This document shows positions 8,701 to 45,917 of a DNA stretch of 64,000 nucleotides, piece by piece (positions within the stretch are counted from its first letter, which is position 1; every line of letters begins with the position of its first letter). The translations under genes were made by a program, and so were the position numbers. The stretch is from Acidobacteriota bacterium. Its GTDB lineage: Bacteria > Acidobacteriota > UBA4820 > DSQY01. Location of the stretch: positions 78,532 to 142,531 of the forward strand of contig JBFMHB010000001.1 in the NCBI GenBank assembly GCA_040752915.1. Reading direction: 5' to 3'. The notes beneath the pieces are model-generated. The model saw only the letters and a list, made by a program, of their open reading frames with translations, had not been told where the DNA came from and did no database searches.

Positions 8701-8988
8701 TCCCCGGACGGCGATCCGGTGGACCTCCAGGCGCGAGTGAAGGACGGGCAGGTCCACTTTCGCGTCGAAGACAGCGGTCATGGAATCCCGACCTCGGATA
8801 TGGAGCGGATATTCGAGCCCTTCTTTACGACCCGGCAGGGACGTTCCGGCCTGGGGCTGACCCTGGCCCGCCACTACGCTCACATCCACGGGGGATCGCT
8901 CACCGGGCGGAACAACGGCGGCCGCGGGGCCACTTTCGTCCTTCAGATCCCCTTGGATTGCCGCCCTTCCCCGCCGCTGGACGCCTAA
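5701..8988 (+). CDS. Membrane-anchored multi-PAS sensor histidine kinase (about six PAS/PAC repeats, HisKA, HATPase_c); no adjacent response regulator
   Basis: Two N-terminal TM segments. Repeated PAS cores (GMAFIRDPQGRYVWTSGGW, GVVFIRDADGRYVYVNEAWE, GPAFLRDAEGRYVYVNEAWE, etc.) separated by ITERKRAE/ITDRKEA PAC linkers. H-box LAHEVRNPLFAIQ and ATP-lid G-boxes DSGHGIP...GLGLTLA at the C-terminus. Confidence 0.9.
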   Translation: MAEPMKAGLRGYFRGSRLPASLAGLAAGVFLLGACGLLWVGYLSPRVERHHAQTPPASPEHPPEGARLERAAFLAIGFLLSVTGGLAAYLLVNRQRRLEAHIAMAVRDARELNEKLEAQLAARREMEARFTAFMNHLPGMAFIRDPQGRYVWTSGGWSRETGLSSEEVSGLSPSAVFPDVVARDFLDLDRRVLEERRVLRQEFALPGPDGYKFWTETVFPIPVPGGTGPLVGGIALDITVLKRAQTELKESERRHRELFEGSLAGVFSTTVEGEILACNDALARMFGLSSAEEVKKHSAWEGYFDLDARRAFLDVLRASGSVEGHEMAVRKVDGTNLWILVSAKLERDARDRLVVSGTAVDITERKRAEKALQESEACFQAFLARVPGVVFIRDADGRYVYVNEAWEVLSGRRAEEVLGKTPADLFPSEVADRILEEDAQTLAGRVQVWEEEPEEINGRTRYFFCSKFPLPCGEGRPPRVAGISIDITDRKEAQEALRAFVDHIPGPAFLRDAEGRYVYVNEAWERLMHLERSQVLGRTPRDLFPPSLAEPIEEEDRDALAGRLLEWQEEAQEFDGEIRYFSCAKFPLGEVRGGNPLVGGISVDVTDRRRALDALRESERYFRDLFECAHDPILIFDPDTEVILDANQRAVEVYGFSREELVGLSLETITLDVPRGKDAIRRTMAAGAYLDYQTTHRRKDGRLLHIEANAAVISFRGRPAILSIARDVTRRREVERALADSERRYRLLFERNLAGVYRARLDGSLIECNQAFARLFGFDSPEEAVAASNHQFTARREDFEAFRTRLLQDGAVTDHEVRTRRKDGALFRILENAVLVREPDQEPYFEGTLIDITGQRRRAQLEARARQLEALGKIAQGLAHEVRNPLFAIQVNLSALRRLIQASPEGERHADLMNENVQRLDRLMRTMMELSLSVAPEEIESISLGPLVQQAVQDARSQEPEKAARVHVHVDLPQPSPAFWAAPKKVALALSHVVANALAASPDGDPVDLQARVKDGQVHFRVEDSGHGIPTSDMERIFEPFFTTRQGRSGLGLTLARHYAHIHGGSLTGRNNGGRGATFVLQIPLDCRPSPPLDA

Positions 8989-11891
8989 GGGGGCGTCATT
9001 CGCGTGTCCTCCAATCCCCATCCGTTCACGGGGATGCGGAGCAGGCTGCCGGAGCGGTCGCGGACGAGGACGTACCCATCCTGAAGGCCCTTCAGGAAGA
9101 GGCGCCCCGTCAGCGCGACGTCCTGTCTGCAATAGGCTTCGATGAGGTCGAAGCGGCCCTCCCTGAACCAGGCCACCGACTGCACGCCGTCGGCGCTCTT
9201 GCCCTCGCCGAAGTTGGCCTCTCCAAGGGAGGCGAGGGAAACCCGGAAGCCCATCTTCTTCCTCAGAGCCTTCAACAGGTCCAGGGTCTTGACCTTGTGA
9301 AGATCTTGTTCCGTGTAGGGCTGGAGGACCGCCAGGTCGAATCCGTCCACATTGAAGCCCACCACCAGCGGCGCCGCGAGCAGGTCTTCCACGAGCGCGT
9401 CGGCCTCTTCCTCGAAATAGGTCCGCCAACGGTCTCGGTCCAGGTCCCAGGTTACCGCCAGGGCCAGGCGCATGGCCGCTATGTGCCCCCACCCGCCCAC
9501 TTCGGCGGCGAGGCGCTGGGTTTCGAGATCGAAGACCAGTCGCCCGGGAGCTGGGCCAGGGGGGCTCCCCTGCCTTGTCGCGCCGGCCGAGGTGGGGGGC
9601 GTGGTGGGGTGTCCCTCCCCAGGATCCAGGTCCTCCTTCCCCAGGAGGATGGAGCAGACGAGACGCGCCCCTTCCTTGTCGAGCGGCTTGTTGCCGGACC
9701 CGCACTTGGGCGATTGGATGCACCCAGGGCACCCGGTTTCGCAAGGACAATCCCGAAGGAGGTCGGCGGTCGTCTGAAGGAGTTCCTCGAAGACGCCGAA
9801 CCCCTTTCTGCACAGGCCCACCCCGCCCGGATACCCGTCGTAGACAAATACGGCGGGTCCGCCCGTCTGGGGGTGAAGAGGGTAGGATATGCCTCCGAGG
9901 TCCCACCGGTCCGAAAGGGCCCTTAGGGGGAAGATGCCGATGAGGGCATGCTCGAAGGCGTGGATGCCTCCCATGAAATGGAGACCTCTCCCCGCCGCGG
10001 CGGGCTCCGACCCGGGGGGAAGGACCACCCAGAATCCCTCGGTCTCGAAGACGATGGGGGGGGCTTGGAGGGGATGTTCCGACAGGGTCTCCCCTCCACT
10101 CAGGCTCTTCTTCACGTACGAAGTGATGTGCTCCGTGACCTTGAGGCGCCCCAGGAACAGCTCCGCCGGCCCCGTCGTCCGGCGATCCCGGACCTCCAGG
10201 ATTTCGGTTTCCTTGTCTCCCCGAGCCTCGGTGTAGTAGTCCGCATCGGAGATTTTGGCCACCGCCTTCAAGTCCTTGTGCGAGAGGGCCACGATTTCGT
10301 AGCTCTGGCCCTGGTGGAGGTACACCGCTCCGACGTGGCACTCCCGGTGGACTCGAACTCCGTCCACCGTTCCGATGGCCTTTCCCGAGGGATCGACGAT
10401 CCGGTAACTCTCTCCGATTCCCCTGAGGCTCAAGTCGCGGTGGGGCGAGCGATGGAGCGTGTGCCAGGACGTACCCTCCGCATCCAGGACGAGGTCGCCC
10501 GCTTCAGCCAGGTCCTCCAGGACGTGCCGGCGGAGTCCCCCGGCGGCGAACTCCTCCTCCCTCAGGGGTGCCTCGCGCGCCGCGCAGAGGAAGTGGGGAG
10601 GCCAGAGCAAGGGGTTCTCGGGATCGAGAACGGCCTCCTCCAGGGGCCGGTTCAGCAGGCGGTCCGGGTGCGTCACGAAGTACTGGTCCAAGGCGTCGGG
10701 CATGGCGATGAGGAAGACCGCCGCCTCTTCCCCCCCGCGTCCCGCCCGGCCCATGCGCTGAAAAAGGGAGACGAGGGACCCTGGGTACCCCACGAGGACG
10801 CACGCATCGAGCCCGCCCACGTCAATGCCCACCTCCATGGCGGAGGTGCTCACAACCCCTCGGAGGGAGCCGTCGAAAAAGGCGGCCTCGATGCGCCTCC
10901 TTTCGGAGGGGAGGAATCCGGCGCGGTAGGAGGAGACCGTCTTCCGGTAGGACCGGTCTCTCTGGCAGAGCCACGAATACAGAAGTTCGGTGACTCGTCG
11001 GGCCTTGGTGAAGGTGAGTGTCCTCCTCCCCTCCCGTAAAAGACGGTCCATGACCTCCACGGCCAGGGTGTAGGGGCTCCCTTCAGTGGCGAGCAGGTGA
11101 AGACGGCGGGGGGGACGCGGGGCCCCGCTCTCTTCCAGGACGAGGGCCTCCCGCCCGGTGAGGGTTCGAAAAAAGCCGGCGGAATCGGACAGCGTGGCGG
11201 AGGTGGCCACCCACCGTGCGTCGGCGCCCGCACGGTCCAGGACGCGGCCCAACCTCCACAGAAGGTGGTGGACGTTGGCCCCGAAGATGCCACGGTACAC
11301 GTGCGCCTCGTCGAGAACCACCAGAGCCAGGCGCCGGAACCATCCCTCCCAATTCTCCCGGAAGGCCAGGAACGCCAGGTGGAGCATGTCAGGATTCGTG
11401 ATGAGGACGGGCGGCGGGTCCTTTTGGAGGACCTTCCGTTGCGCGCTTCCCGTGTCCCCGTCGTAGACCGCGGCCCGAAACCCGGTCATGCCGAGCGTCT
11501 CCGCAAAGTCGTTGATCTTGGCGCACTGGTCCTGGGCGAGGGCTTTGTACGGGTATAGGAAGAGAAAGCGTCGCGCGGGATTCTCGAGCCAGGCGTGGAG
11601 GGCGTAGAGCTGATATACGAGGCTCTTTCCGCTGGCGGTGGGCGTGCTGACCATGAGATCCCGGCCGGCGAAGAGACCCTGAAGCCCCCGGACCTGGTGG
11701 GAGAAGAGGCTCTTCATCCCCGCACGGGCCAGACCGGCCCGCAGTTCCCCGCGCAAGGCGGCCGGAGGCTCCTCCATGCCCCCCGGTGAGGCGGGGAGGT
11801 CGAAGGTGGCCCTCACGTTCTCTCGAAACCGGGGATCCGAGGCGGGCTCCCAGAGGAAGGAGCGGCAACCGGCGCGGGGCTGGTCGGGCAT
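8985..11891 (-). CDS. Fusion protein: DEAH-box helicase (MrfA/YprA-like) + DUF1998-type Cys4 zinc finger + C-terminal DEDD-family 3'-5' exonuclease domain
   Basis: Helicase motifs I TPTASGKS, II DEAH, III SAT, VI QRMGRAGRGG. DUF1998 metal cluster CPCETGCPGCIQSPKCGSGNKP. The C-terminal ~185 aa carry DnaQ/RNase D-like Exo I (FDLET), Exo II (GFNVDGFDLAVL) and Exo III Y-x3-D (YCRQD) motifs. Convergent 4-nt overlap with the kinase gene. Confidence 0.9.
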   Translation of the reverse strand: MPDQPRAGCRSFLWEPASDPRFRENVRATFDLPASPGGMEEPPAALRGELRAGLARAGMKSLFSHQVRGLQGLFAGRDLMVSTPTASGKSLVYQLYALHAWLENPARRFLFLYPYKALAQDQCAKINDFAETLGMTGFRAAVYDGDTGSAQRKVLQKDPPPVLITNPDMLHLAFLAFRENWEGWFRRLALVVLDEAHVYRGIFGANVHHLLWRLGRVLDRAGADARWVATSATLSDSAGFFRTLTGREALVLEESGAPRPPRRLHLLATEGSPYTLAVEVMDRLLREGRRTLTFTKARRVTELLYSWLCQRDRSYRKTVSSYRAGFLPSERRRIEAAFFDGSLRGVVSTSAMEVGIDVGGLDACVLVGYPGSLVSLFQRMGRAGRGGEEAAVFLIAMPDALDQYFVTHPDRLLNRPLEEAVLDPENPLLWPPHFLCAAREAPLREEEFAAGGLRRHVLEDLAEAGDLVLDAEGTSWHTLHRSPHRDLSLRGIGESYRIVDPSGKAIGTVDGVRVHRECHVGAVYLHQGQSYEIVALSHKDLKAVAKISDADYYTEARGDKETEILEVRDRRTTGPAELFLGRLKVTEHITSYVKKSLSGGETLSEHPLQAPPIVFETEGFWVVLPPGSEPAAAGRGLHFMGGIHAFEHALIGIFPLRALSDRWDLGGISYPLHPQTGGPAVFVYDGYPGGVGLCRKGFGVFEELLQTTADLLRDCPCETGCPGCIQSPKCGSGNKPLDKEGARLVCSILLGKEDLDPGEGHPTTPPTSAGATRQGSPPGPAPGRLVFDLETQRLAAEVGGWGHIAAMRLALAVTWDLDRDRWRTYFEEEADALVEDLLAAPLVVGFNVDGFDLAVLQPYTEQDLHKVKTLDLLKALRKKMGFRVSLASLGEANFGEGKSADGVQSVAWFREGRFDLIEAYCRQDVALTGRLFLKGLQDGYVLVRDRSGSLLRIPVNGWGLEDTRMTPP

Positions 11892-11912
11892 CGGGTTTCC
11901 CGGCCCGAGGGC

Positions 11913-12356
11913 CTACCAGGCCTCTCCGGCCCGGACCTTTCGGAGGTAGAAGATGTCCTTGCGGAGAACGTACCCTTCGCGCTGAAACAGGGCGAGGCTG
12001 GGGCCGTTCCAATCTTCGATCAGGCAGGCGACGATGCCGCGCCCCCGGCTTTCGAAGACCTCCTCGCAGGCGGCGATGAGGCGCGCTCCGAGGCCCATCC
12101 TCCGGAAGGGCGGGGCCACGGCGAGGCGGTTGATCCACCCTTTCCTCCCATCGTCGGTCGCCAGAACCACCCCGGCCAGCGACGCCCCCACAAAGGCCCC
12201 AAGAAGAAGCGTCCCTCCCGAGGCCAGTTCCTCCGCCATCCTCTCGGCCGAATCTCGCCCCTCGGGATGATAGGGCAGCCCCGCCTCGGTCCACAGCCGG
12301 TGGACCGCCGGCACGTCCTTGGGGCCCAGACTCCTGATGACGGGTTCTTCGATCAC
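11913..12356 (-). CDS. GNAT family N-acetyltransferase
   Basis: Acetyl-CoA binding motif RRMGLGARLI and the GNAT fold signature WINRLAV...; 147 aa. 21-nt spacing to the downstream helicase gene. Confidence 0.8.
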   Translation of the reverse strand: MIEEPVIRSLGPKDVPAVHRLWTEAGLPYHPEGRDSAERMAEELASGGTLLLGAFVGASLAGVVLATDDGRKGWINRLAVAPPFRRMGLGARLIAACEEVFESRGRGIVACLIEDWNGPSLALFQREGYVLRKDIFYLRKVRAGEAW

Positions 12357-14530: not shown

Positions 14531-15293
14531 GACCCCCGCCCTCGCCATCGAGAACTTGAAGAAGTCCTATGGTCGCCTGGAGGCCGTGTCCGACCTGACC
14601 CTCGAGGTGGCCGCGGGCGAAATCTACGCCTTTCTCGGTCCCAACGGAGCCGGCAAGACCACCACGCTTCGCACCGCGGCGGGGCTGCTCCTGCCGGACG
14701 GGGGCTCCATCCGGATCTGCGGAGAGCCGGTGGAGGCCGACGCCCTCCCGTTCCGCCGCCTCATGGCCTACGTTCCGGACCGGCCCTACTTGTACGAAAG
14801 GCTCACCGCCTGGGAATACCTCGATTTCCTGGCCCGTGTTCGGGGCCTTCGGGAATGGCAGGACAGGGCCCGGTCTCTTCTGGAGCGGTTTCGTCTCGAG
14901 GCCTGGGCCCACCAGCTCGTGGAGGGTTTCTCTCACGGGATGCGTCAGAAACTCGTCCTCGTCGGAGCCCTGCTTCACCGGCCGCGTCTGCTCATGGTGG
15001 ACGAGCCCATGGTCGGGCTCGACCCGCGCTCCTCGAGGGACGTACGGGACCTCTTCGGGGAACTCGCCTCCGAGGGGACGGGCCTCTTCCTCTCCACCCA
15101 CTCCCTTGACATGGCGGCGGAGGTGGCCCACCGCATCGGGATCCTGCACCGAGGCCGACTGGTGGCCGAGGGCGCCTTCGGCGAGCTCCAAACCTTGGCC
15201 AGCCGGCCGGGAAGCTCCCTGGAGGATATTTTTCTCACCCTCACGGAGGAGAAATGGGAGGAAGAATCACGAGCCGGATTCGGGGCCTCCTGA
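14523..15293 (+). CDS. ABC transporter ATP-binding protein (ABC-2 type), no permease gene adjacent on this strand
   Basis: Walker A GPNGAGKTT, Q-loop, ABC signature FSHGMRQKL, Walker B LLMVDEP, H-loop STHS. 8-nt overlap with the ferredoxin gene. Confidence 0.9.
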   Translation: MAETPALAIENLKKSYGRLEAVSDLTLEVAAGEIYAFLGPNGAGKTTTLRTAAGLLLPDGGSIRICGEPVEADALPFRRLMAYVPDRPYLYERLTAWEYLDFLARVRGLREWQDRARSLLERFRLEAWAHQLVEGFSHGMRQKLVLVGALLHRPRLLMVDEPMVGLDPRSSRDVRDLFGELASEGTGLFLSTHSLDMAAEVAHRIGILHRGRLVAEGAFGELQTLASRPGSSLEDIFLTLTEEKWEEESRAGFGAS

Positions 15294-16357
15294 AGCCCCG
15301 CGTGGCCCTCGTCCTCGGCGGAGGAGGAGCCCGCGGCTTCGCCCACCTCGGCGTGCTCAAGGTGCTCGAGCAGGAGAAGGTCCCCGTGGACCTCATCGTG
15401 GGATGCAGCGCCGGAGCGCTCATCGGCACGCTGTACGCCTTCTCGGGCTCCACCGAGGCCGCCGAACGGGGGCTGGTGGAGTTCTCCCATTCACCTGGCT
15501 TTTCCGACGGACACTACCGGGACATCCAGGCCATCGTCCCGCTGGCCGGGGGCGAAAAGCGCGGCCTCTTCAGCCGACTCCACAGGGCCTACAAGATGGC
15601 CTCCTTCTTCGCCTCCACCCTCCTCAAGGAATCCTTCGTCCATCCGAAGGAGTTCGAGCGAAATGTGGCCGCGGTCATTCCCGACAGGCGCCTGGAGGAG
15701 TCCCCCATACCCCTCGCCATCGTCGCGACGGACCTGAAGACGGGTGAGGAGGTCGTCCTCCGGGAGGGTCCGGCGCGTCTGGCGGTCCAGGCCTCCTCGG
15801 CCATCGCGGGCGTCTTCCCGCCCGTCCAGGTCGGTCGCCGCGACCTCGTGGACGGCGGCTTCGTCGACAAGGTCCCCGTGGAGGTCGCCATCCGCCTGGG
15901 CGCCGACGTGGTCCTCGCGGTCAACGTGGGCCTGGATGTGGATCGAAACGGGGACGTTCAGAAGCGCGGGGCGACCATTTCGGCCCGGGCCAACGCCATC
16001 ATGTCCGAGGCGCTTACGGAGATTCAGACTCGCTTCGCCGACGTGCTCATCTGCCCCGACGTCCAGTCCGTCCACTGGGCGGATTTTCGCTCCGTCGAAC
16101 GCGCGGTCCCCCTTGGGGAGGCCGCCGCCCGGAAAGCCATGCCTCAGGTCCGAAAGGCCCTTCGACGAGGCTGGCGAAGGAAGTTGGTTCGAATCGTTGG
16201 CCGCTGGCCGAGGCGCACCGTCGTCTTTCGACCCCTCTCCCCTTCCTTCACACCCGCCCTTCCGGAGGCGCCTCCGGCGCCGGCAGAGACGGATCGGGCC
16301 CCACACGCCGAGGCGGCCCCTGCGGCGGCGCCGAACTCCCCTCCGAAGGCACGCTGA
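15254..16357 (+). CDS. Patatin-like phospholipase family protein
   Basis: Oxyanion-hole GGGGARG, nucleophile elbow GCSAG (GxSxG) and catalytic DGG(F) block (DLVDGGFVDKVPV). GGAGGA RBS 4 nt upstream. The 3' end of the ORF is low-complexity and Pro-rich, so the true stop is uncertain. Confidence 0.85.
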   Translation: MGGRITSRIRGLLKPRVALVLGGGGARGFAHLGVLKVLEQEKVPVDLIVGCSAGALIGTLYAFSGSTEAAERGLVEFSHSPGFSDGHYRDIQAIVPLAGGEKRGLFSRLHRAYKMASFFASTLLKESFVHPKEFERNVAAVIPDRRLEESPIPLAIVATDLKTGEEVVLREGPARLAVQASSAIAGVFPPVQVGRRDLVDGGFVDKVPVEVAIRLGADVVLAVNVGLDVDRNGDVQKRGATISARANAIMSEALTEIQTRFADVLICPDVQSVHWADFRSVERAVPLGEAAARKAMPQVRKALRRGWRRKLVRIVGRWPRRTVVFRPLSPSFTPALPEAPPAPAETDRAPHAEAAPAAAPNSPPKAR

Positions 16358-27615: not shown

Positions 27616-27755
27616 TCGGGCTCCCCGTCCCGCCTTGCGGGACACCAGCGCATTGTACCGATCCCCGCCCTCCCTCGCAATGGAGGCGCGCCCCTCGGGG
27701 GGGTCTCCGGCGGCCTTGACCCTGGCTCCGCTTCTGCGCTATCGTTCTGGTCGGC

Positions 27756-27831
27756 GCGGGCGTAGCTCAGTCGGTAGAGCGCGAGCTTCCCAAGCTTGAG
27801 GTCGCGGGTTCGAGACCCGTCGCCCGCTCCA
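27756..27831 (+). tRNA. tRNA-Gly (anticodon CCC)
   Basis: Manually folded cloverleaf: acceptor GCGGGCG/CGCCCGC, D-arm GCTC-AGTCGGT-AGAGC, anticodon stem CGAGC/GCTTG with loop TTCCCAA (U33-CCC-A37), T-arm GCGGG-TTCGAGA-CCCGT, discriminator U73, encoded CCA. Confidence 0.85.
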
Positions 27832-27842
27832 GAGAATCCGAA

Positions 27843-27874
27843 GAGGGAGGCTGTGCCTCCCTTTCTTGTTTCTG
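27843..27874 (+). terminator. Rho-independent terminator-like hairpin after tRNA-Gly
   Basis: GGGAGGC-tgt-GCCTCCC stem-loop followed by a TTTCTTGTTTCT U-rich tract. Confidence 0.5.
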
Positions 27875-28058
27875 CGGATTCGAAGGCAAAAGGGTCGAGA
27901 AGGGCGGGACACGCCGAGGCGTTGCCGCGAGAACGCGACCGAGGAGGGAGCGTTCGCAGCGCAACAACGCCCGGCGAGAGACCCGCCCCGGGAACCGTAG
28001 GCGCCGTTGCGCGCGCAAGCGGCCGGACTCCGACGGCCGCGAGCACGCTACGGCGCGT

Positions 28059-28085
28059 AGGTTCGAGACCCGTCGCCCGCTCCAG
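28059..28085 (+). repeat. 27-nt direct repeat of the tRNA-Gly 3' end (T-arm + acceptor 3' strand); putative att-site remnant
   Basis: GGTTCGAGACCCGTCGCCCGCTCCAGA occurs at 27807..27833 (inside the tRNA) and again identically at 28059..28085, with no 5' half of a tRNA upstream of the second copy. Confidence 0.7.
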
Positions 28086-28094
28086 AATACCCAA

Positions 28095-28124
28095 AGAGGG
28101 AGGCCCAGCCTCCTTCTTTTTTTT
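28095..28124 (+). terminator. Strong Rho-independent terminator after the duplicated tRNA 3' end
   Basis: GGAGGC-cca-GCCTCC hairpin followed by TTCTTTTTTTTT; near-identical in sequence to the hairpin at 27843..27874. Confidence 0.55.
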
Positions 28125-28353
28125 TGGCTCTCCTGAAGAATCTGTGCAGACCCCCGAGGGGAACCGCCGTCCGCAGCAGGCGAATGGCGACCTTCCGGCG
28201 CATTGAGGAAAAGTCGATCCGCAAGGCCCCGCCTCCATTGCGCCCTCCGCCCCGATGGCATACCCTTGCTCCTTGCCATCCTGGAGGGAGGGCGGGGGGC
28301 CGCGGAAATCAAGAACTCGGCGCCCGCGGGACTCCGAACCCGCCGGAGGAGAC

Positions 28354-31077
28354 ATGGAAGGTCTGGTCATCTTGCTCCTGGCGGCCGTTCTCCTGGGAGG
28401 CCCCGTGGTGGCCCTCACCCTTGCGATTGTGGCTCTGGTCCGAGGCAACCGGCTCCGACGCAACCTTCTCGATGCCCTGGATGACCAGCGCCGGGAATTG
28501 CAACACCTTCGAGCCCAGCTTGCGAAACTCCACTCCGATCTCGCGAGGAGCGATGGTCCCCCAGTTGAAAGGAGCCCCGGTCCCGCCTTGCCCCTTGAGG
28601 CTCCAACGGAACTCCCCCCGTTGGCGCCGGAGCCCCTGACCCAGACCGCTTCAGATTCGATTCAGGCTCCGACGCAACCGATTCCTGACCGGACCGCCCC
28701 ACCTGCTCCACCCGTCGAGCCGCCCACGGCCTCCAGCGCACCGCCTGGGGCCGGACCGCCTCCCCAACCACCCGTCCGACCCGCCATGGGCCTGGAGGAG
28801 AAACTGGGGGCCAGGCTTTTCGTGTGGGTGGGAGCCGTCGCTCTGGCCCTGGCCGGAACCCTGTTCGTGAAGTATTCCATCGACCAGGGCTGGATCAGCC
28901 CGCCCGTGCGCATCGCATTGGGGGTCCTCTTCGGCGCGGCCCTCCTGGTGACGGGGGAGCTTCTCCGAAAGGGCTACCGACTCCTCGCCCAGGCGTGCTC
29001 GGCGGCCGGCATCGCCGACCTCTTCGCGTGCTTCCTTGCGGCGAGCAACCTGTACCACCTCATTCCGAACCTGGTGGCCTTCGCCCTCATGGGACTCACG
29101 GCCGCCGTGGGCGTGGCGCTCTCTCTTCGGCAGGGGCCACTGGTGGCCGTGGTGGGGCTCATCGGCGGCTTTTTCACGCCCTACTGGCTCAGCACGGGTT
29201 CCCACCGTCCGGGCCCGCTCTTCGGCTACCTGCTTCTGCTCCAGGTAGGCCTCCTGGCCGTCACGCGCCTGCGCAGGTGGTGGCCCCTGGCGGGTCTCAC
29301 CCTCCTTGCGGGAATGGGCTGGGCGGCCCTCTGGCTCGCGTTCCCGTTCCGGCCCGAGGACGGCCTCTGGGTGGGACTTTTCCTCCTCGCAAGCGTGGGG
29401 GCTTTCCTGGCCAGCGGTTTCGCCGGTCGGGCCGCGGCGGCCTGGGGAGACGCGCGGATCCCCCTGGGCCTCGGGTGGGCCGCCCTGGGCTCCGGCCTCG
29501 GGCTCCTCGCCGCACTGGCGGGCCGTGGCGGATTCGGCACCACGGAGTGGGTCTTCCTGGGCATCCTCGGCGCCGCCTGCCTGGCCATGGGGCGCCTGGA
29601 CGAGGCCTTCGAGGGGACGGCCTGGCTCGCGGTGATCCTCACGACGATCTTGCTCGGTCTTTGGGGGGCCGGCCTGGCTCCCGACGCCCTGGGCCTTTAC
29701 CTCGCGACGGCGGGTTCGCTGGGCGCCCTCTTCGCCTTTGGGGCCTACGCTTGCCTGTGGGGCTCCGCGTCGCCCGGCCGATGGGCCGCCCTCTCGGCCC
29801 TCTCGGCGCTGGGCGCGTTTCTGATGGCATGGCGGACCCACCTGGGACTCGTCCATGGGGGCCATTGGGGTCCTCCGGCCCTTGTGATGGCTTTCCTTTT
29901 CCTCGCGGGCGCCGTTCCCCTGGCCTCCCGCCGGAACACCTTGAAGGGCGGCGAGGAGGCCCTGGCGGCCATGGCGGCGGCCGCGACGGCTTTCGTGAGC
30001 CTGGCCGTGCCTCTGGAACTCCATCGCGAGTGGATGGCGGTGGCCTGGGCTCTGGAGGTGGCGGCGCTGTGCTGGCTGTCCGAACGCCTTCGGGTGGGCG
30101 CCCTGGCCAAGCTGGCCTGGGCCCTCGCGGCTGGCGTCGCGGCTCGCCTCCTCCTCAACCCCTTCGTCCTCGCCTACCCCACGGGGTCCACTCCTGTGCT
30201 GAACTGGATCCTCTACGGCTACGGCTTGCCATTGCTGGCCTTCGCCGCGGGCGCCTGGTTCGTCCACCGCGACCGCAAGGCACTTTCGGAGGCCCTCCAG
30301 TGGGGGGCCCTGGCCTTCGGCGGGGCCCTTCTGGCCCTCGAAGTTCGCCACTATTTTCACCCAGGGCGCCTGGACTCACCCCGGGTGGACCTGGCCGAGT
30401 GGGGCGGTTGGGTCGTGGCATGGATGGCGCTGGGGCTTGGCCTCCTTGCGGCCTCCCGCCGCTGGCCCCTTCGGTCCCTGGACTGGGGCGGGCGCCTGCT
30501 CCTTCTCGCGGCTCTCGCCCTGGCGGCGTTGGGCCCGTGCCTCGTCGCCAATCCTGCCTGGACCCGCCACCCCGTTGGGGACACGCCGGTTTTCAACGCC
30601 CTTCTCTTCGTTTACGGGGTTCCGGCCCTGCTGGTCCTGCTCGGAGCGGCGGAACTCCGGAGCCGTGGCGAAGAGAGGATCTCGCGCGTTCTGGGGGCCG
30701 GAGGCCTCATCCTCCTCTTCTGCCTTCTGACCCTGGAAATCCGCCAGGGCTTCCGGGGCAGTCTGCTTCAGGCGGGCCGCGCCACCAACATGGAGAATTA
30801 CGCGTATTCGGCGGGATGGATCCTCTTCGGGCTGGTCCTCCTGGGGGCAGGCATCGCCCGGCGATCGGCGGCCTTCCGGTACGCATCCCTCGCCGTGATG
30901 ATTCTCACCATCGGAAAGATCTTCCTCTACGACCTCGCCCACCTGAAGGACACCCTGCTTCGCGCCCTCTCGTTCCTGGGGCTGGGGACGAGCCTGCTGC
31001 TGATCGCCTACCTTTACATGCGTTTCGTTTTCCGCCGGAGGGACGAATGCGAATCCGCCGCTTCGCGGGAGTCCTGA
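28354..31077 (+). CDS. DUF2339-family polytopic membrane protein (N-terminal TM + coiled coil + Pro-rich linker + >20 TM helices)
   Basis: Start taken at ATG 28354 (MEGLVILLLAAVLLGG) with a GGAGGA RBS. Coiled-coil LRRNLLDALDDQRRELQHLRAQLAKLHSDL, a Pro-rich spacer, then ~600 aa of repeated hydrophobic helices — the architecture typical of DUF2339. Confidence 0.75.
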   Translation: MEGLVILLLAAVLLGGPVVALTLAIVALVRGNRLRRNLLDALDDQRRELQHLRAQLAKLHSDLARSDGPPVERSPGPALPLEAPTELPPLAPEPLTQTASDSIQAPTQPIPDRTAPPAPPVEPPTASSAPPGAGPPPQPPVRPAMGLEEKLGARLFVWVGAVALALAGTLFVKYSIDQGWISPPVRIALGVLFGAALLVTGELLRKGYRLLAQACSAAGIADLFACFLAASNLYHLIPNLVAFALMGLTAAVGVALSLRQGPLVAVVGLIGGFFTPYWLSTGSHRPGPLFGYLLLLQVGLLAVTRLRRWWPLAGLTLLAGMGWAALWLAFPFRPEDGLWVGLFLLASVGAFLASGFAGRAAAAWGDARIPLGLGWAALGSGLGLLAALAGRGGFGTTEWVFLGILGAACLAMGRLDEAFEGTAWLAVILTTILLGLWGAGLAPDALGLYLATAGSLGALFAFGAYACLWGSASPGRWAALSALSALGAFLMAWRTHLGLVHGGHWGPPALVMAFLFLAGAVPLASRRNTLKGGEEALAAMAAAATAFVSLAVPLELHREWMAVAWALEVAALCWLSERLRVGALAKLAWALAAGVAARLLLNPFVLAYPTGSTPVLNWILYGYGLPLLAFAAGAWFVHRDRKALSEALQWGALAFGGALLALEVRHYFHPGRLDSPRVDLAEWGGWVVAWMALGLGLLAASRRWPLRSLDWGGRLLLLAALALAALGPCLVANPAWTRHPVGDTPVFNALLFVYGVPALLVLLGAAELRSRGEERISRVLGAGGLILLFCLLTLEIRQGFRGSLLQAGRATNMENYAYSAGWILFGLVLLGAGIARRSAAFRYASLAVMILTIGKIFLYDLAHLKDTLLRALSFLGLGTSLLLIAYLYMRFVFRRRDECESAASRES

Positions 31078-32963
31078 TCCTCGCGGTCCTTCCCCTGGCC
31101 GCCCAGGTTCCGCCTGGCCGATTTGAGCGCATCGCCCAGGCCCCTTCGGAGGGCTGGTACCGTGTCAATCTGGATCCCGCCACGCGGGGGCGCATGACCC
31201 CCGACGCCCGGGACTTGAGGATTGTGGACGCTTCGGGCGCCGAAGTGCCCTACCGGCTCCTTCTACCCCCGAAGCCAGCCGAAGCCATACCAGCCGCAGC
31301 GCGCGCTGTCCGGGAATCCCCGGATGGGTGGGAACTGGTCTTCGACCTCGGTGCCTCGACGCCTCCCCATCATGCCTTCCGTTTCGAGTTCGCCAACCGC
31401 GCGGCGGTTTCCGACTGCCGGCTGGAGTCGGGCCGAGACGGCGCATCCTGGCGCCTTCTGGCCCGGGGGGACCTTTTCCGCCTCGGCGAAGGTGAGGGCC
31501 TGTCGAGAACTTCTCTGGCCTACCCGGCCACCTCGGATCGCTACCTCCGCCTGATCTGGCCCAAGGGGGGAGACTACCCCGACGTCCGGCGCGCCGAAGC
31601 CCTTCCCGCGCCGCCTTCGCCCGCCACGATCCTCGAGTTCGCTCTGAGCCTGACCCACGAGAGCGATCTACCCGCCGGCCGCGTTTATCTCGTGAGCCTG
31701 CCGGGTACCGGCGCCGGCCTGAAGGGACTCCGCCTCGCGGCACACGGCGCCGGGGCCCTTTCCTACCGGCTCTGCGCCGTCCGTCAGGGCCGCTGGGAGA
31801 CCGTCGCCGAGGGGACGTTGACCGCCGATCCAAAGGGCGCGTGGCCCGATGTGGCCGTTGAGGAGGGCCCCTTCGAGAGCCCCGTGCTCCGGCTCGAGGT
31901 CGCCTCGGGGGTTCTTCCCTCGCCCTCCGTTGCGGCGGTTTGGGGTTCTTTTCAGGTTCCCTCGATCTTCTTCCATGCCGGTGCGCCCGGCGCCTACCGC
32001 TTCACGTACGGCAGCCTTGGCATGGCGCCGCCTCAGTACCCTTCTTTCGCGGTCCCGTCCCCCCCCGAGTCCGTACCCCTCCTGGTCTTGGGGCCCGAGC
32101 GCGATGGAGCGCCCGCAGGCCTGCCCGCCGCCCGGGCGGGCCTGGGTGCCGCCCTGCCCGAGGCCTCCTTCTCCACCGCCTGGCCCGTGAATCCCGGGCT
32201 GAGACCCGGGGAATTGGCCCGATTGGAGTTGCCCGGGGCCGTCTACGCCCCGGCCCGGACGGACCTCGGGGACCTGCGCCTGGAGTCGGGCGGGCGTCAG
32301 GTACCGTACCTGCTCCATGCGGCCGCCGAGCCGGTCTCCGTGTGGCGGGTCACCGGGCTCATCCCGAGCCCGGGCCGCATCCGGGGTGAAAGCGAAATCC
32401 TCCTCCCCGAGGTTCCCAAGGGTATGCACCTGACGGCCCTGGAACTGCGGACCTCCGCCTCGGCTTTCCACCGGCCCCTCGCCGTCCATTTTGTGGCCGA
32501 TGGAAGCAGGCCTGGTCTCGAATCCCCACCGGCCGTCCACCACGGCGACTGGTCTTGCGCGGGCGCCTCGGCCCTGCCCTGCCGGCTCGTCGTGCCCCTA
32601 TGGGGCGCCAGCCCCGGCGGAAAGATCCGTGTGGTCTTTCAGGACGGCGACAACCCGGCCCTTTCCTCGGTGGACGCGCTCCTGTGGCGCCGTGGACATA
32701 CACTCTTTTTTCTGGCGCCCGAGGGGCCCGCGCGCCTCCTGGCCGGCTCGCCGAACCTGCAGCCGCCCCGCTATGACCTGGCCTCCCTGGCCTCCCAGAT
32801 CCTCGCCATGCCCAGCCAGGCTGCCGACCTGGGTCCCGCCGAGGAAGGGGGCTCCCTGGCGGGCTCCCGGACGGTCCGGCTCGTCCTCGTCGGCGCCCTC
32901 ATCCTCTGCGGTGCGGTCCTCCTCCTCATCCTCGCCCGCGCCTTGAAAAGGCCCGAGGGTTGA
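31047..32963 (+). CDS. DUF3999-like exported protein with C-terminal membrane anchor
   Basis: In-frame ATG at 31047 (MRIRRFAGVLILAVLPLAAQ, signal peptide) overlapping the DUF2339 3' end by 31 nt. C-terminal TM helix VRLVLVGALILCGAVLLLILA. This gene-pairing with DUF2339 is the arrangement recalled for DUF3999. Confidence 0.65.
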   Translation: MRIRRFAGVLILAVLPLAAQVPPGRFERIAQAPSEGWYRVNLDPATRGRMTPDARDLRIVDASGAEVPYRLLLPPKPAEAIPAAARAVRESPDGWELVFDLGASTPPHHAFRFEFANRAAVSDCRLESGRDGASWRLLARGDLFRLGEGEGLSRTSLAYPATSDRYLRLIWPKGGDYPDVRRAEALPAPPSPATILEFALSLTHESDLPAGRVYLVSLPGTGAGLKGLRLAAHGAGALSYRLCAVRQGRWETVAEGTLTADPKGAWPDVAVEEGPFESPVLRLEVASGVLPSPSVAAVWGSFQVPSIFFHAGAPGAYRFTYGSLGMAPPQYPSFAVPSPPESVPLLVLGPERDGAPAGLPAARAGLGAALPEASFSTAWPVNPGLRPGELARLELPGAVYAPARTDLGDLRLESGGRQVPYLLHAAAEPVSVWRVTGLIPSPGRIRGESEILLPEVPKGMHLTALELRTSASAFHRPLAVHFVADGSRPGLESPPAVHHGDWSCAGASALPCRLVVPLWGASPGGKIRVVFQDGDNPALSSVDALLWRRGHTLFFLAPEGPARLLAGSPNLQPPRYDLASLASQILAMPSQAADLGPAEEGGSLAGSRTVRLVLVGALILCGAVLLLILARALKRPEG

Positions 32964-39339: not shown

Positions 39340-39837
39340 ATGAAGTCGGCATGGAATCTGCTCTGGAGGTACACACTCGGGGCGGCCGTGTCGGTTCTTC
39401 TTTCGCTCCTGCTCCTGCTCGGTTTCTTCCGGCCCTTTCGAGTGTCCGGTCAGAGCATGGCGCCCACCCTCGGAGACCGGGACCTGATCCTCGTGGACCG
39501 TTGGGCCTTTCGCCTGGGGGGGCCCCAGCGAGGCGACCTCGTCATTCTGACGGACCCTTCCGGAAGCGGGTTCCTCGTCAAGCGCGTGGCCGGGCTTCCG
39601 GGGGATCACCCCGAGGCGCTTCCCGCCTCCGCCGGGGGAGTCCCCGACGGATTCCTCTATTGCGTCGGAGACAATGCCGCGGAAAGCCTGGACAGCCGGC
39701 ACCTGGGGCCATTTCCCATGGACCGGGTTTATGGGCGGGTTCTCGTCCGCATTCCGGAGCGCCATGCCGCCCGCGTCACCACAGGGGGCCTCGCCCAGGC
39801 CATCGGGCCCGCGGCCCCTCGGAAAGAGCCGCCATGA
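39340..39837 (+). CDS. lepB: Signal peptidase I (S26 family)
   Basis: N-terminal TM, Ser box VSGQSMAPTL, Lys box VKRVAGLPGD, and a GDN box (CVGDNAAESLDSRHLGP). Confidence 0.85.
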   Translation: MKSAWNLLWRYTLGAAVSVLLSLLLLLGFFRPFRVSGQSMAPTLGDRDLILVDRWAFRLGGPQRGDLVILTDPSGSGFLVKRVAGLPGDHPEALPASAGGVPDGFLYCVGDNAAESLDSRHLGPFPMDRVYGRVLVRIPERHAARVTTGGLAQAIGPAAPRKEPP

Positions 39838-40952
39838 GCCTCGGAGCTGTTCCCCTCCAAGGCGACTACTCCCAGCTCGGCCTCCCCGAGATCCTGGACT
39901 TTCTCAAGACCACCGGGAAGACCGGCGTCCTCCTCGTCCGGAACGGGACCGTGACGAAGACCCTTCACTTCAAGAACGGCGTCGTCACCTTCGCCACCTC
40001 CAATGTGCCCGAAGAACGCTTCGGGGACATGCTCCTGCGCCAAGGCCGGATCAGCCAGGCCCAATTCGACGAGGCCAGCCGCCACGTGACCCGAGGCAAG
40101 CGGCTGGGCAAGATTCTCGTGGAAATGAAAGCGCTCACCCCCAAGGACCTCTGGAACGAGGTCCGGCGCCAGGTGCAGGAGATCGCCTTTTCCATCCTCC
40201 GTTGGGATTCGGGGTCGTTCCAGTTTTTCGAAGGGGAGGAGAAGGCGGGCGAGAACATCACGACGGCCATTTCCGTCCCGGAGCTTCTCCTGGAAGGTCT
40301 CCGACGCATCGAGGACCCGGCTCTTTTCGAACGCTACATGCCCAACAAGGACGTGGTCTTCGAGCGGGTGCTTCCGGCCCACCGCCCCCAGGGCCTCCAC
40401 TTCGAGGAATACGAGAAGCACGTCTTCCGCCTGGTGGACGGGGCACGCAGCGTCCAGGAAGTGTGCGACCTGAGCGAAATCGGGGAGTTCGAGACGCTCA
40501 AGACACTGTATATCTTCTTCTCCATCGGGTTCCTCCACGTCAAGGGCCGGAAGGACCGGTTCGAGGAGGAGCGCCGCGAGTTGAAAGAACTGGGCGGCCT
40601 CATCCGCAATTACAACGAAATGTTCTCCTTCCTGTACCACTACCTTCTGCGTGAAGTCGGGCCCATCGCGGAGAACATCCTGGAGAAGTACCTCGGACGC
40701 CTCAAGACCGTTCAACCGGAGGTTTTCGGGAGAGTCACCATCCGGAGCAACGGATCCCTCTCCGAGGAACGGCTGATCGAGAACCTGCGGGCCCTTCAAG
40801 GGGATCGCCAGGCCCTCCTGGTGCAGTCCCTCAACGAGTTCCTCTACAGCGTGCTCCTGGCCATTCGAAGGACCCTCGGGCCGGACCACGAGACCCGGGT
40901 CCTGGAGACCCTCCGCCACACGCGAAAAGACCTTTTCCGTGAGCCCTCCTGA
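39834..40952 (+). CDS. DUF4388-domain protein
   Basis: ATGA overlap with lepB. N-terminal DUF4388-like block GDYSQLGLPEILDFLKTTGKTGVLLVRNGTVTKTLHFKNGVVTFATSN, followed by ~300 aa of alpha-helical sequence with no enzymatic motif. Confidence 0.6.
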   Translation: MSLGAVPLQGDYSQLGLPEILDFLKTTGKTGVLLVRNGTVTKTLHFKNGVVTFATSNVPEERFGDMLLRQGRISQAQFDEASRHVTRGKRLGKILVEMKALTPKDLWNEVRRQVQEIAFSILRWDSGSFQFFEGEEKAGENITTAISVPELLLEGLRRIEDPALFERYMPNKDVVFERVLPAHRPQGLHFEEYEKHVFRLVDGARSVQEVCDLSEIGEFETLKTLYIFFSIGFLHVKGRKDRFEEERRELKELGGLIRNYNEMFSFLYHYLLREVGPIAENILEKYLGRLKTVQPEVFGRVTIRSNGSLSEERLIENLRALQGDRQALLVQSLNEFLYSVLLAIRRTLGPDHETRVLETLRHTRKDLFREPS

Positions 40953-42284: not shown

Positions 42285-42950
42285 TTGGACCAGACGGAAC
42301 TGCTGAAACGGATCACCTGCTTCAGCGGGCTGGATGAAGCCCATCTGGAGGAGGTTCTCCGCTTTTCGGAACGTCGCACCTTCAGCCGCGGGGAAGTCCT
42401 GTTCGAGTTGGGCGATCCGGGCGAGGCGCTTTACATCCTCCTCTCGGGGCGGGTCAAGTGTTACATCAACGGCAAGGACGGACGTCAGGTGACGCTCGCA
42501 TTCCTGGGTCCCGGAGAACTGGTCGGCGAACTGGCCCTGTTCGATCCGGCGGAACGCCGCTCGGCATCCGTCCAGGCGGTGGAAGAGACGGACTGCGTGT
42601 GGCTTTCCCGGGAACGCTTCCTGGAGGCCCTCGCCTCCAATCCTTCCCTTGCCCTCTCCGTCATCCGGACCCTTTCCCAGAGGCTTCGGGAAACCTCCCA
42701 GCGCGTGGGCAGCCTGGTTCTGATGGACACCTTCGGCCGCCTCGCGCGCTTCATCACAGAACTGGCGGAGCGCGAAGGGCGCCAGCTGGCCGACGGCTCC
42801 ATCCTGATCACGCGGCCGACCCAGGAGGAGATCGCCCATTTCATCGGAACCAGCCGCGAGACCGTGAACCGCCTGCTGAAGGAACTGGAGACCCAGGGGT
42901 TCTTGCGCCTTCTCGGCCGGAAGATCCTCCTGTTCAAGACCCCCTCCTGA
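42285..42950 (+). CDS. Crp/Fnr family transcriptional regulator (cNMP-binding domain + HTH)
   Basis: TTG start. cNMP-binding beta-roll (GEVLFELGDPGEALYILLSGRVK...GPGELVGELAL) and C-terminal HTH TQEEIAHFIGTSRETVNRLLKEL. Confidence 0.85.
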   Translation: MDQTELLKRITCFSGLDEAHLEEVLRFSERRTFSRGEVLFELGDPGEALYILLSGRVKCYINGKDGRQVTLAFLGPGELVGELALFDPAERRSASVQAVEETDCVWLSRERFLEALASNPSLALSVIRTLSQRLRETSQRVGSLVLMDTFGRLARFITELAEREGRQLADGSILITRPTQEEIAHFIGTSRETVNRLLKELETQGFLRLLGRKILLFKTPS

Positions 42951-44054: not shown

Positions 44055-45917
44055 GTGGCGCTGGCCTGGCCCCGCTTTCGCCGGGGCGGACTCATTCTCG
44101 GCGGGATTCTGACCGTCCTCGGGGCGCTCCCCCTCGCTCTGGGGATCGCCTCGCCCGGCGAGGGAAGGCTGTACGATCTCCTGCTCCGAACGCGGAGGCA
44201 CCCTCCCTCCGGCCGGGTGGTGCTCGTTGCGGTGGACGATGCCGCGTTTCAGGCCTTGGGGGGACGCAATCCCAGCCGCGCCGACATCGCCGCTGTCGTG
44301 GATCGCCTCTGGGCTTCGGGCGCCGCCCTGGTGGCGCTGGATTTTTTGTTCCTCGAGCCAAGAACGGAAGCCGAAGACGCGCTCCTGGAAGGCGCTCTCG
44401 CGCGCGCGGATTGCCTCCTGGCCTGCAGCCCCGGCAACGGTCTCTATCCCTTGGACCGGTTTCGGCGCCAGGCCGTCGGACTCGGCTCCATCGACCTCCT
44501 CTCCGATCCGGACGGCATCTTCCGCAAAATCCCCGCTCCGTACGTGGAGGCGCAGGAGGGCCGATTCAAGATCCGGCACCCGCCTCTCGCCCTGGCAAGC
44601 GCTCTTCTTTACTGGTTTCCCGAGGGACCGCCGGAGGTGAGGCTGGAAGGGAACACCCTGCACCTGGGAGAGAGGCGGTTCGCCACCGATGGCACGGGAT
44701 GGTGGATCCCTTACCTCGGCGGTGAAGGAACCCTGCCGCGGATCCCCTTTCTGGAGGCGTTGAAGGGGTCAGGGCCCCTCCCCGCCTTGAAGGGCCGCAT
44801 CGTCCTCGTGGGTTCCGCCCGCCCCAGCCAGCACGACTTTTTCTCCGTCCCCCTCCCCAGGCTTGCGGACCCGGGACAGACCTCCCTTTCGAGCCACACC
44901 ATGGCGGGGGTCGAGGTCCATGGCCAGGCTCTGGAGGCCCTACTGGCCGGCCGGGAAATCGTACCCGTCCGCGGGCCATGGGCCTGGGCCCTTTTCGCCC
45001 TTCTGGCCGCCCTGGGCACGGTGCTCACATCCCTTGCCCTCCGGCCCGGCCCGGCCCTGGCCGTCTGGTTCCTGGTTTTCGCCTCCCTGGCGTGGGGCGC
45101 CATCGCCGCCGTGCGGGCGGGAAGGCCCCTTCCGATCTTGGGCCTGGCGCTTTGCGCGCTTCTCTTCGCGGGGGGGTCCTTCGCCTACCACCGGGCCCGC
45201 GACTACAGCGAGCGCCGGGCGGTGGAAGGCCTTTTCAGCCGGTACGTCTCGCCGAACATCGCCAGGACGCTCCTTCGGAACCCGGGTGTCGTCCAGCTCG
45301 GAGGCCGAAGGAAGGACCTGACCATTCTCTTTTCCGACATCCGCGGGTTCACGCGCCTCTCCGAAGACCTTCCGCCGGAGCGCGTCTGCCTCCTGCTCAG
45401 CGAGTACTTCAACGAGATGACGGAGGTTCTTTTCGCCTTCGACGGCACCCTGGACAAGTTCATCGGAGACGCAATCCTGGCCTTCTTCGGCGATCCCCTG
45501 ACGCAACCCGACCACCCCGCCCGCGCTCTGGCCTGCGCCGTCGCCATGCAGGAACGCGCCAGGGCCCTCCGGGAGCGGTTCTCCAGGGAGGGGAAACCGC
45601 CGCTGCACATCGGAATCGCCGTTACGTCGGGGCCCGTGGTGGTGGGGAACAACGGCTCCAGGAACAACTTCGCCTACACGGTGATCGGGGACACGGTGAA
45701 CCTGGCCTCCCGGCTCCAGGGCCTCGCCGTTTCCGACGACGTGATCGTGCCGGCCGGCTTGGCGGCCCGCATCCCCGAGTTGTACGAGACTTACGAGGTC
45801 GAACCCCTCGATCCGGTCCGGGTCAAGGGCAAGAGCGAAGAGATCCCCATCCTGCGCGTTCGGGGGAGGCGGTCCTCCGGCTCCGACCCGGCGCAGACGC
45901 ACGGAGGTGTTCCATGA
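44055..45917 (+). CDS. CHASE2-sensor adenylate/guanylate cyclase (class III nucleotidyl cyclase)
   Basis: N-terminal TM, a periplasmic CHASE2-like domain (VVLVAVDDAAF...ALDFLFLEP), three TM helices, then cyclase motifs LTILFSDIRGFTRLSE, KFIGDAILAFFGDP, VVVGNNGSRNNFAYTVIGDTVNLASRLQG. Confidence 0.85.
   Translation: MALAWPRFRRGGLILGGILTVLGALPLALGIASPGEGRLYDLLLRTRRHPPSGRVVLVAVDDAAFQALGGRNPSRADIAAVVDRLWASGAALVALDFLFLEPRTEAEDALLEGALARADCLLACSPGNGLYPLDRFRRQAVGLGSIDLLSDPDGIFRKIPAPYVEAQEGRFKIRHPPLALASALLYWFPEGPPEVRLEGNTLHLGERRFATDGTGWWIPYLGGEGTLPRIPFLEALKGSGPLPALKGRIVLVGSARPSQHDFFSVPLPRLADPGQTSLSSHTMAGVEVHGQALEALLAGREIVPVRGPWAWALFALLAALGTVLTSLALRPGPALAVWFLVFASLAWGAIAAVRAGRPLPILGLALCALLFAGGSFAYHRARDYSERRAVEGLFSRYVSPNIARTLLRNPGVVQLGGRRKDLTILFSDIRGFTRLSEDLPPERVCLLLSEYFNEMTEVLFAFDGTLDKFIGDAILAFFGDPLTQPDHPARALACAVAMQERARALRERFSREGKPPLHIGIAVTSGPVVVGNNGSRNNFAYTVIGDTVNLASRLQGLAVSDDVIVPAGLAARIPELYETYEVEPLDPVRVKGKSEEIPILRVRGRRSSGSDPAQTHGGVP

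Follow-up and report, generated by a model that had tools for sequence, protein, structure and literature searches.

A 64,000-nucleotide (nt) stretch of the metagenome-assembled genome of an Acidobacteriota bacterium (contig JBFMHB010000001.1, positions 78,532 to 142,531), referred to here as the window, contains two overlapping genes for a very large membrane protein and an exported, membrane-anchored partner. What system do these genes encode, and what might it do for the cell? In a preliminary description of the locus, the products were assigned to the families DUF2339 and DUF3999, both of which were regarded as having no known function. The assignments are borne out by a Pfam scan. The product of gene 1 (28354..31077, plus strand, 907 amino acids (aa)) matches PF10101 (DUF2339) with 352 bits (E 9.5e-105; cut-off 33.6), its residues 152-891 aligning with the full model (1-659), and the product of gene 2 (31047..32963, plus strand, 638 aa) matches PF13163 (DUF3999) with 87 bits (E 2e-24; cut-off 30). 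The view of the two families as lacking a function is out of date. The genes PA5114 and PA5113 of Pseudomonas aeruginosa have been named arc3A and arc3B, for antagonism resistance cluster 3 (Ting et al., eLife 2022; PMC8926400), and genetic, lipidomic, and co-immunoprecipitation data on Arc3A and Arc3B are available from this species (PMC8926400, PMC12663445). The defining paper takes PF10101 proteins as Arc3A homologues and PF13163 proteins encoded alongside them as Arc3B (PMC8926400). Gene 1 scores above the gathering threshold of PF10101, and gene 2 combines PF13163 with an Arc3A-like neighbour, which places both within the families as that paper delimits them. The gene pair is very probably an Arc3AB homologue; it is an acidobacterial copy of an already named, partly characterized system, not a new one.

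Searches of other collections complete this picture. The product of gene 2 is identical to a public protein (P0001) named ‘DUF3999 family protein [Acidobacteriota bacterium]’ at NCBI. An NCBIfam scan of both proteins gave no match, and neither protein matched the anti-phage defence models of PADLOC-DB at E <= 0.01. Sequence profile searches of the PDB found no relatives of either protein, apart from a weak match of a galactose-oxidase N-terminal domain to the first domain of Arc3B.

The pairing of the two families extends well beyond the window. Of 13 related loci, 11 have a DUF2339 and a DUF3999 gene side by side on one strand, with Arc3B identity ranging from ~24 to 69%, and short overlaps between the genes occur in six of those loci (five of 4 nt and one of 20 nt). 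This adjacency is not due to chance, and the expectation that orthologues would be neighbours in other genomes is upheld. A DUF2339 gene is found directly upstream of the Arc3B-like gene at L001, L002, L003, L005, L006, L008, and L010, and a DUF3999 gene is found downstream of the DUF2339 relative at L011 and L013. No DUF2339 upstream neighbour is present at L009 or at L004; the DUF3999 match of L004 is only partial. At L012 the partner (8235-9851) lies 415 nt downstream of the DUF2339 gene and encodes a 538-aa Arc3B homologue that lacks most of the first domain (hhalign E 3e-64 against alignment A1). This homologue has no Pfam record in the precomputed set, and co-occurrence counts based on Pfam therefore miss some pairs. 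A profile scan of genome contigs with 14 sequences identified five loci, all of them from Acidobacteriota, with the closest in metagenome-assembled genomes of Thermoanaerobaculia. Searches of plasmids with tblastn also identified DUF2339 genes of 1247 and 1116 aa, without a DUF3999 partner, on alphaproteobacterial megaplasmids of Bosea and Novosphingobium (L014, 3172-6915; L015, 5386-8736), and a tblastn search of plasmids with Arc3B gave no match. These partnerless genes agree with the published occurrence of Arc3A without Arc3B.

The limits of the two genes need some care, since the GC content of the window (66.9%) makes long spurious open reading frames (ORFs) common. Its ORF list contains a frame at 28255..31077 for gene 1 and a 1379-aa frame at 28824..32963 that runs through gene 2, both on the plus strand. 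The starts that we prefer are the ATG codons at 28354 and 31047, each of which has a GGAGG box 4 nt upstream. As read off the sequence, the first box belongs to a Shine-Dalgarno-like GGAGGAG (28345..28351, plus strand) and the second to a GGAGGG within the 3′ end of the arc3A-like gene (31037..31042, plus strand). The ATG at 28354 is the start common to 24 full-length arc3A homologues, which align end to end with a nearly invariant first methionine (alignment A3), and the GC content of the 33 codons from 28255 to 28354 is patterned as in non-coding sequence. For gene 2, all 31 homologues in alignment A1 start at the same signal peptide as the ATG at 31047. The GC content of third codon positions (GC3) is 0.82 in the arc3A-like gene and 0.81 in the arc3B-like gene, compared with 0.53 where the 1379-aa ORF precedes 31047. 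Because of this fall, the 1379-aa ORF is a high-GC read-through artefact, as had been proposed together with the internal start, and the homologues confirm this. The Shine-Dalgarno boxes, homologue starts, and GC3 likewise confirm both start codons and the 31-nt overlap between the genes, the arc3A-like stop being the TGA at 31075-31077. Alternative starts (28255 for gene 1 and that of the 1379-aa ORF for gene 2) were excluded by GC phase, Shine-Dalgarno positions, and homologues. The public protein that corresponds exactly to gene 1 (P0034) is a 763-aa call that begins at Met145 and omits window positions 28354-28785, which encode a transmembrane (TM) helix, a long helix, and a proline-rich module conserved in the 24 homologues. 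The start at 28354 is better than this public call. Several relatives with calls of 754-763 aa appear to be N-terminally truncated in the same way.

How did an overlap of 31 nt arise when most of the short overlaps among relatives measure 4 nt? Comparison with L001, a Thermoanaerobaculia relative, gives a simple answer. The window reads gacgaATGCga where L001 reads gacgaATGAga (8002-8004 of L001 correspond to 31048-31050 of the window). A single A-to-C change, from TGA to TGC at 31048-31050, is synonymous in arc3B (AGA to CGA), and it abolishes the stop codon of arc3A, lengthening Arc3A by nine residues and taking the overlap from 4 nt in L001 to 31 nt in the window (31047..31077, plus strand). 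On this sequence comparison, the overlap is best read as derived from a classic ATGA overlap.

The anatomy of the Arc3A-like protein was examined in an AlphaFold2 (AF2) model built with 25 sequences, which has a mean predicted local distance difference test score (pLDDT) of 76.4 and a predicted template-modelling score (pTM) of 0.59; the pLDDT of the core is mostly 80-93. All protein segments described here and below are encoded on the plus strand. Residues 1-66 (28354..28551) form an N-terminal TM helix (~3-28; hydropathy peak 2.66) that continues into a long, basic, coiled-coil-like helix (AF2 helix 2-66), and this region is conserved in homologues. Residues 67-146 (28552..28791) make up a proline-rich linker of low confidence (pLDDT mostly <50), which varies in length among homologues and is constantly rich in proline (alignment A3); the count of positive charges would place it in the cytoplasm. 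The DUF2339 core, residues 147-895 (28792..31038), consists of 26 closely packed TM helices in the AF2 model, bringing the predicted total to 27, with loops that are mostly shorter than 12 residues. The core contains an internal duplication, in which residues ~591-701 match ~722-833 (hhalign probability 99.6%, E 1.7e-24), and both copies have a conserved loop, NP...G.TPV.N, on the predicted periplasmic side, together with the motif E(V/I)R(Q/H)xFxxG. In the first copy the loop, at ~602-618, reads NPxxLxYPxGxTPVxNW, and its repeat is at ~733-748. Lysine and arginine residues number 31 in alternate, cytoplasmic loops and 10 in the remaining loops. By the positive-inside rule, this bias fits a topology with the N-terminus outside, the C-terminus inside, and the long helix and linker in the cytoplasm. 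The AF2 model, hydropathy, and charge counts confirm the previously proposed order of TM helix, coiled-coil-like helix, proline-rich spacer, and polytopic core. The dense packing of the polytopic region also stands, and its size is corrected from ~600 to ~750 aa. Since the global packing of Arc3A is a prediction with a pTM of 0.59, it should be read cautiously.

The Arc3B-like protein is predicted with greater confidence (32 sequences, pLDDT 84.9, pTM 0.76). Residues 1-20 (31047..31106) form a signal peptide by hydropathy, with MRIRR, a hydrophobic core, and a putative cleavage site at PLAA/Q. The mature protein is built from three beta-sandwich domains. D1 (residues 24-192; 31116..31622) is CBM32/discoidin-like, D2 (residues 193-325; 31623..32021) is homologous to D1 and D3, and D3 (residues 372-570; 32160..32756) has the most conserved motifs in alignment A1. 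The three domains are mutually homologous in hhalign comparisons (D1-D2, 95.8%; D2-D3, 99.0%; D1-D3, 99.0%, E 2e-18). In D3, the motifs DLGDLRL..GRQVPY and DGDNPPL fall in columns D406-P420 and G534-L539 that are invariant or nearly so (A1), and a PRYDL motif preceding the anchor is strongly conserved alongside them. The model places a short helix between D3 and the TM helix at residues 608-634 (32868..32948), which would act as a C-terminal inner-membrane anchor (hydropathy peak 3.11; AF2 helix) and is followed by a basic tail. This anchor is present in all 32 aligned members (A1). The topology put forward for gene 2, namely a signal peptide, a large all-beta periplasmic body, and a single C-terminal TM anchor, is confirmed.

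Two further features of Arc3B are relevant for its placement in the cell envelope. A cysteine lipobox is absent from the first 60 residues of this protein and of all 31 homologues, and the signal looks like a signal-peptidase-I type. The resemblance of the domains to CBM32 and F5/8 type C (discoidin) domains, among them the C2 domain with which coagulation factor V binds membranes, is one of fold, with sequence identities of only 10-19%; it stays at the fold level and gives no evidence of a ligand. This lectin/discoidin-like fold suggests, as speculation, binding of head groups or glycans. The three-domain form of Arc3B is common and not exotic. Among 1.84 billion cluster representatives, a profile search recovered 8603 Arc3B relatives at E <= 1e-3, of which 2138 remained at a cut-off of E <= 1e-30. 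In length, the 150 best-scoring relatives range over ~490-930 aa, with nearly all at 600-760 aa; all of them cover the long-form profile completely or almost completely, most from end to end. Among ten representatives looked up, one named long-form member comes from Candidatus Didemnitutus, which we take to be a genus of Verrucomicrobiota.

Could these two proteins form an envelope-spanning transporter or a signal-sensing machine, with a polytopic channel or sensor and a periplasmic receptor subunit, as their topology had earlier suggested? There is a superficial architectural fit, since a large polytopic protein is joined by an anchored partner with beta-sandwiches of a ligand-binding type, and the Arc3B of Pseudomonas is predicted to bridge both membranes. 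Against this, neither protein and none of the adjacent genes has a transporter, ATPase, kinase, or other signalling domain. Arc3A has no other Pfam, NCBIfam, or PDB sequence match and no evident catalytic motif, and its predicted fold matches no solved membrane protein, transporter, enzyme, or channel. Arc3B lacks the lipobox that would predict outer-membrane contact, and Arc3A homologues act without a cognate Arc3B (PMC8926400). The suggestion of a transport or sensing machine is not supported by these results, and we consider it quite unlikely. A different idea can be put forward tentatively. It is possible that Arc3A represents a membrane-protein architecture without a solved counterpart, in which an internally repeated alpha-solenoid of 26 helices in the bilayer serves as a lipid-handling scaffold, such as a lysolipid sponge or hand-over platform, and is neither transporter nor enzyme. 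The three domains of a lipobox-less Arc3B might then confine their action to the inner membrane's outer face, where they would bind head groups or glycans and thereby supply Arc3A or set its position.

What is known of the function of Arc3 comes from studies of interbacterial antagonism. In P. aeruginosa, arc3A is the single most important gene for survival of Tle3, a phospholipase that B. thailandensis delivers through its type VI secretion system (T6SS) (PMC8926400). Cells lacking arc3A build up lyso-phosphatidylethanolamine (lyso-PE) and monolyso-cardiolipin, the protection is specific to Tle3, and divergent Arc3A proteins from other species complement the deletion (PMC8926400). Arc3A and Arc3B co-immunoprecipitate, with Arc3B having an auxiliary role (PMC8926400). 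A CRISPR interference screen independently recovered arc3A, with protection against the lipases TseL of V. cholerae and Tle1 of A. baylyi (PMC12663445; bioRxiv 2024, Nat Commun 2025). The mechanisms proposed are that the many TM segments may sequester or turn over lysolipids or that the system may interfere with the lipase (PMC8926400), and our literature search for an Arc3 structure found no structural study.

By analogy with these findings, the pair is probably a chromosomal two-gene arc3AB operon of a Thermoanaerobaculia-like member of the Acidobacteriota, whose products would form a complex that guards the membrane from lysophospholipids. Arc3A would insert in the inner membrane with its N-terminus outside, leaving the long helix, the proline-rich linker, and the C-terminus in the cytoplasm, and its 26 short-looped TM helices are predicted to pack like a membrane-embedded alpha-solenoid. 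Arc3B would be exported, lose its signal peptide, and remain attached to the inner membrane through its C-terminal helix, displaying its three CBM32/discoidin-like beta-sandwiches in the periplasm. A complex between the two is suggested by the co-purification in P. aeruginosa, with the conserved gene overlap as indirect support. As in that species, Arc3A may be the active component and Arc3B an auxiliary periplasmic partner. The complex might prevent the build-up of lyso-PE and monolyso-cardiolipin under attack by phospholipase A-type toxins or from other sources of lysolipid. Arc3A might act by sequestering lysolipids in its helix array or handing them over there, or by capturing the lipase.

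The chromosomal setting provides a second line of evidence on the nature of the pair. Upstream are panBCD and the genes for RNase PH, a Glu/Asp racemase, a GerMN-domain protein, an AmiC-type amidase, and tRNA-Gly(ccc); downstream are those for bactofilin, thiE, ccmE, ccmF, mtnA, tsaD, and tRNA-Lys. From tRNA-Gly to tRNA-Lys, the gene order is identical in L001, whose Arc3 proteins are 64-78% identical to those of the window. The preliminary description placed the pair beside an attachment-site scar at tRNA-Gly, which raises the possibility that it is the cargo of a degraded mobile element integrated there. A 65-nt direct repeat of the 3′ end and terminator of tRNA-Gly does exist, with copies at 27807-27871 and 28060-28124 that are 83% identical, and the GC content of the operon (0.70) is slightly higher than that of its flanks (0.66-0.67). 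The second copy starts 253 nt downstream of the first, with 188 nt between them, so that both lie upstream of arc3A and the pair is outside the repeats. No integrase gene was found among its neighbours, the repeat is itself shared with L001 in the same gene order, and the codon-position GC values of the pair match the genome. The repeat is thus real, and its reading as the scar of an element that carried the pair is not upheld. Because gene order and repeat are kept in L001 and both copies precede arc3A, we conclude that the pair is a stable chromosomal operon, and an origin as island cargo is very unlikely.

Other features of the region between tRNA-Gly and arc3A were also observed. In the stretch 27975-28125, which as RNA folds at -75.3 kcal/mol (z = -4.4), a long hairpin precedes the second copy of the tRNA 3′ end and terminator, and ~100 nt of this element are nearly identical in L001 (4695-4719 and 4928-4952), where there seems to be more than one copy. 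In the intergenic region, Rfam gave no match besides the tRNA. Instead of a simple attachment-site scar, the element could be a repeat or a small RNA. Two adjacent pairs of inverted repeats (14 nt at 100% and 18 nt at 89% identity) bracket tRNA-Gly at 27663-27693 and 28225-28297. Their right arms are just upstream of the arc3A start, and in L001 the core, CGCAATGGA / TCCATTGCG, is conserved in part. These could serve as the site of a regulator or form a long-range stem.

How far can the role in defence be carried over to this bacterium? Several points weigh against a lysophospholipid guard modelled on Pseudomonas. The function is transferred across phyla from gamma-proteobacteria, and the Gac/Rsm control of the Pseudomonas system cannot apply here. 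A scan of 30 ORFs, spanning most of the window from 1 to 46 kb, found no aas/lplT, T6SS, lipase-immunity, or integrase genes. The missing lipobox means that attachment of Arc3B to the outer membrane is not predicted in this clade, so the periplasm-spanning geometry proposed for Pseudomonas would not be supported here. Finally, the conserved housekeeping synteny fits constitutive membrane maintenance equally well. This last point leads to the main alternative, in which the same proteins, with the same biochemistry, take part in constitutive envelope or lipid homeostasis by dealing with lysolipids that stem, for example, from endogenous phospholipases, oxidative damage, or the maturation of lipoproteins, and not in defence against competitors. 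The gene order kept with a relative, among amiC, murI, tRNA-Gly, bactofilin, thiE, and ccmEF, is in keeping with such a role, as is the result for T6SS, immunity, and aas genes. Ting et al. noted that environmental and endogenous lysophospholipids are possibly continuing threats (PMC8926400), and at L013 the pair adjoins a LiaF-like protein and an envelope-stress module of the LytS/LytTR type. On the other side, the only experimental phenotypes for the Arc3 family are specific to toxins, and the alternative differs from membrane protection against toxins in its ecological role alone. We regard constitutive homeostasis as possible but doubtful.

Among the related loci, genes connected with lipids or envelope stress recur loosely near arc3AB. 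The LiaF-like protein and LytS/LytTR two-component system of L013 are at 9663-12243, genes for alpha/beta-hydrolases or esterases are found near arc3AB at L011 (10831-11637) and L012 (1-918), and a GDSL lipase gene is present at L006 (1-259). In the window itself, a patatin-like phospholipase is encoded at 15254-16357, 12 kb upstream of arc3AB. These neighbours loosely recall estA beside arc3AB in P. aeruginosa. Other genes in the window are seemingly unrelated to the pair, including those for a 533-aa DUF4388-domain protein after tRNA-Lys (39351-40952), a Crp-family regulator (42285-42950), and a CHASE2-adenylate/guanylate cyclase (44055-45917).

The biological interest of this locus is that few defences against type VI phospholipase toxins are known that do not rely on immunity proteins, and Arc3 is among them. 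In Acidobacteriota, arc3AB is kept with a translational overlap in stable housekeeping synteny, in a setting without Gac/Rsm in which no aas or T6SS neighbours were found. Stable retention without those partners therefore argues for a broadly useful membrane-protective role. The clade of long-form Arc3B proteins is very large and every member checked is without an outer-membrane lipid anchor; spanning of the periplasm is therefore questioned as an essential property. The analysis also provides usable structure predictions: for Arc3B, three discoidin-like domains that are homologous to one another, and for Arc3A, an array of helices without a solved relative. With a confident Arc3B model and a compact Arc3A, the pair could be a good structural target for understanding the Arc3 mechanism. 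These clade-specific details may help mechanistic work; the classification is unchanged by them. The system is already named, and the product of gene 2 already has its DUF3999 label at NCBI.

Two known systems offer the closest comparisons. The LplT/Aas pathway of E. coli (PA3267 in P. aeruginosa) also handles the lysophospholipids made by phospholipase A and contributes to defence against T6SS lipases. It differs in consisting of unrelated proteins, a flippase of the major facilitator superfamily and an acyltransferase/acyl-ACP synthetase, none of which was found near the locus. In many bacteria aas genes are neighbours of arc3 genes (PMC8926400). The Arc3 pathway is nevertheless independent of re-acylation by LplT/Aas: Arc3A makes no contribution to the re-acylation of lyso-PE, and overexpression of Aas is no substitute for Arc3A (PMC8926400). 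The second comparison is with Arc3 of Pseudomonas itself. The window's pair comes from Acidobacteriota and not from Gammaproteobacteria, and the likeness is drawn through Pfam families and gene order. The Arc3A described here has 27 predicted TM helices, compared with 35 reported for PA5114, and it carries the N-terminal TM helix, long helix, and proline-rich module. Its Arc3B, at 638 aa and with three beta-sandwich repeats, is longer than the 424-position Pfam model, and it has no lipobox, whereas for Pseudomonas Arc3B the prediction is a lipoprotein of the outer membrane that bridges both membranes (PMC8926400). That lipid anchor is a prediction for the Pseudomonas protein and not a published criterion of the family. 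There is also no estA-like gene adjacent to the pair in the window. What the two systems share is the combination of PF10101 and PF13163, the order of A then B on one strand, a very large polytopic Arc3A without a recognizable catalytic motif, and a neighbouring pair that is widely conserved.

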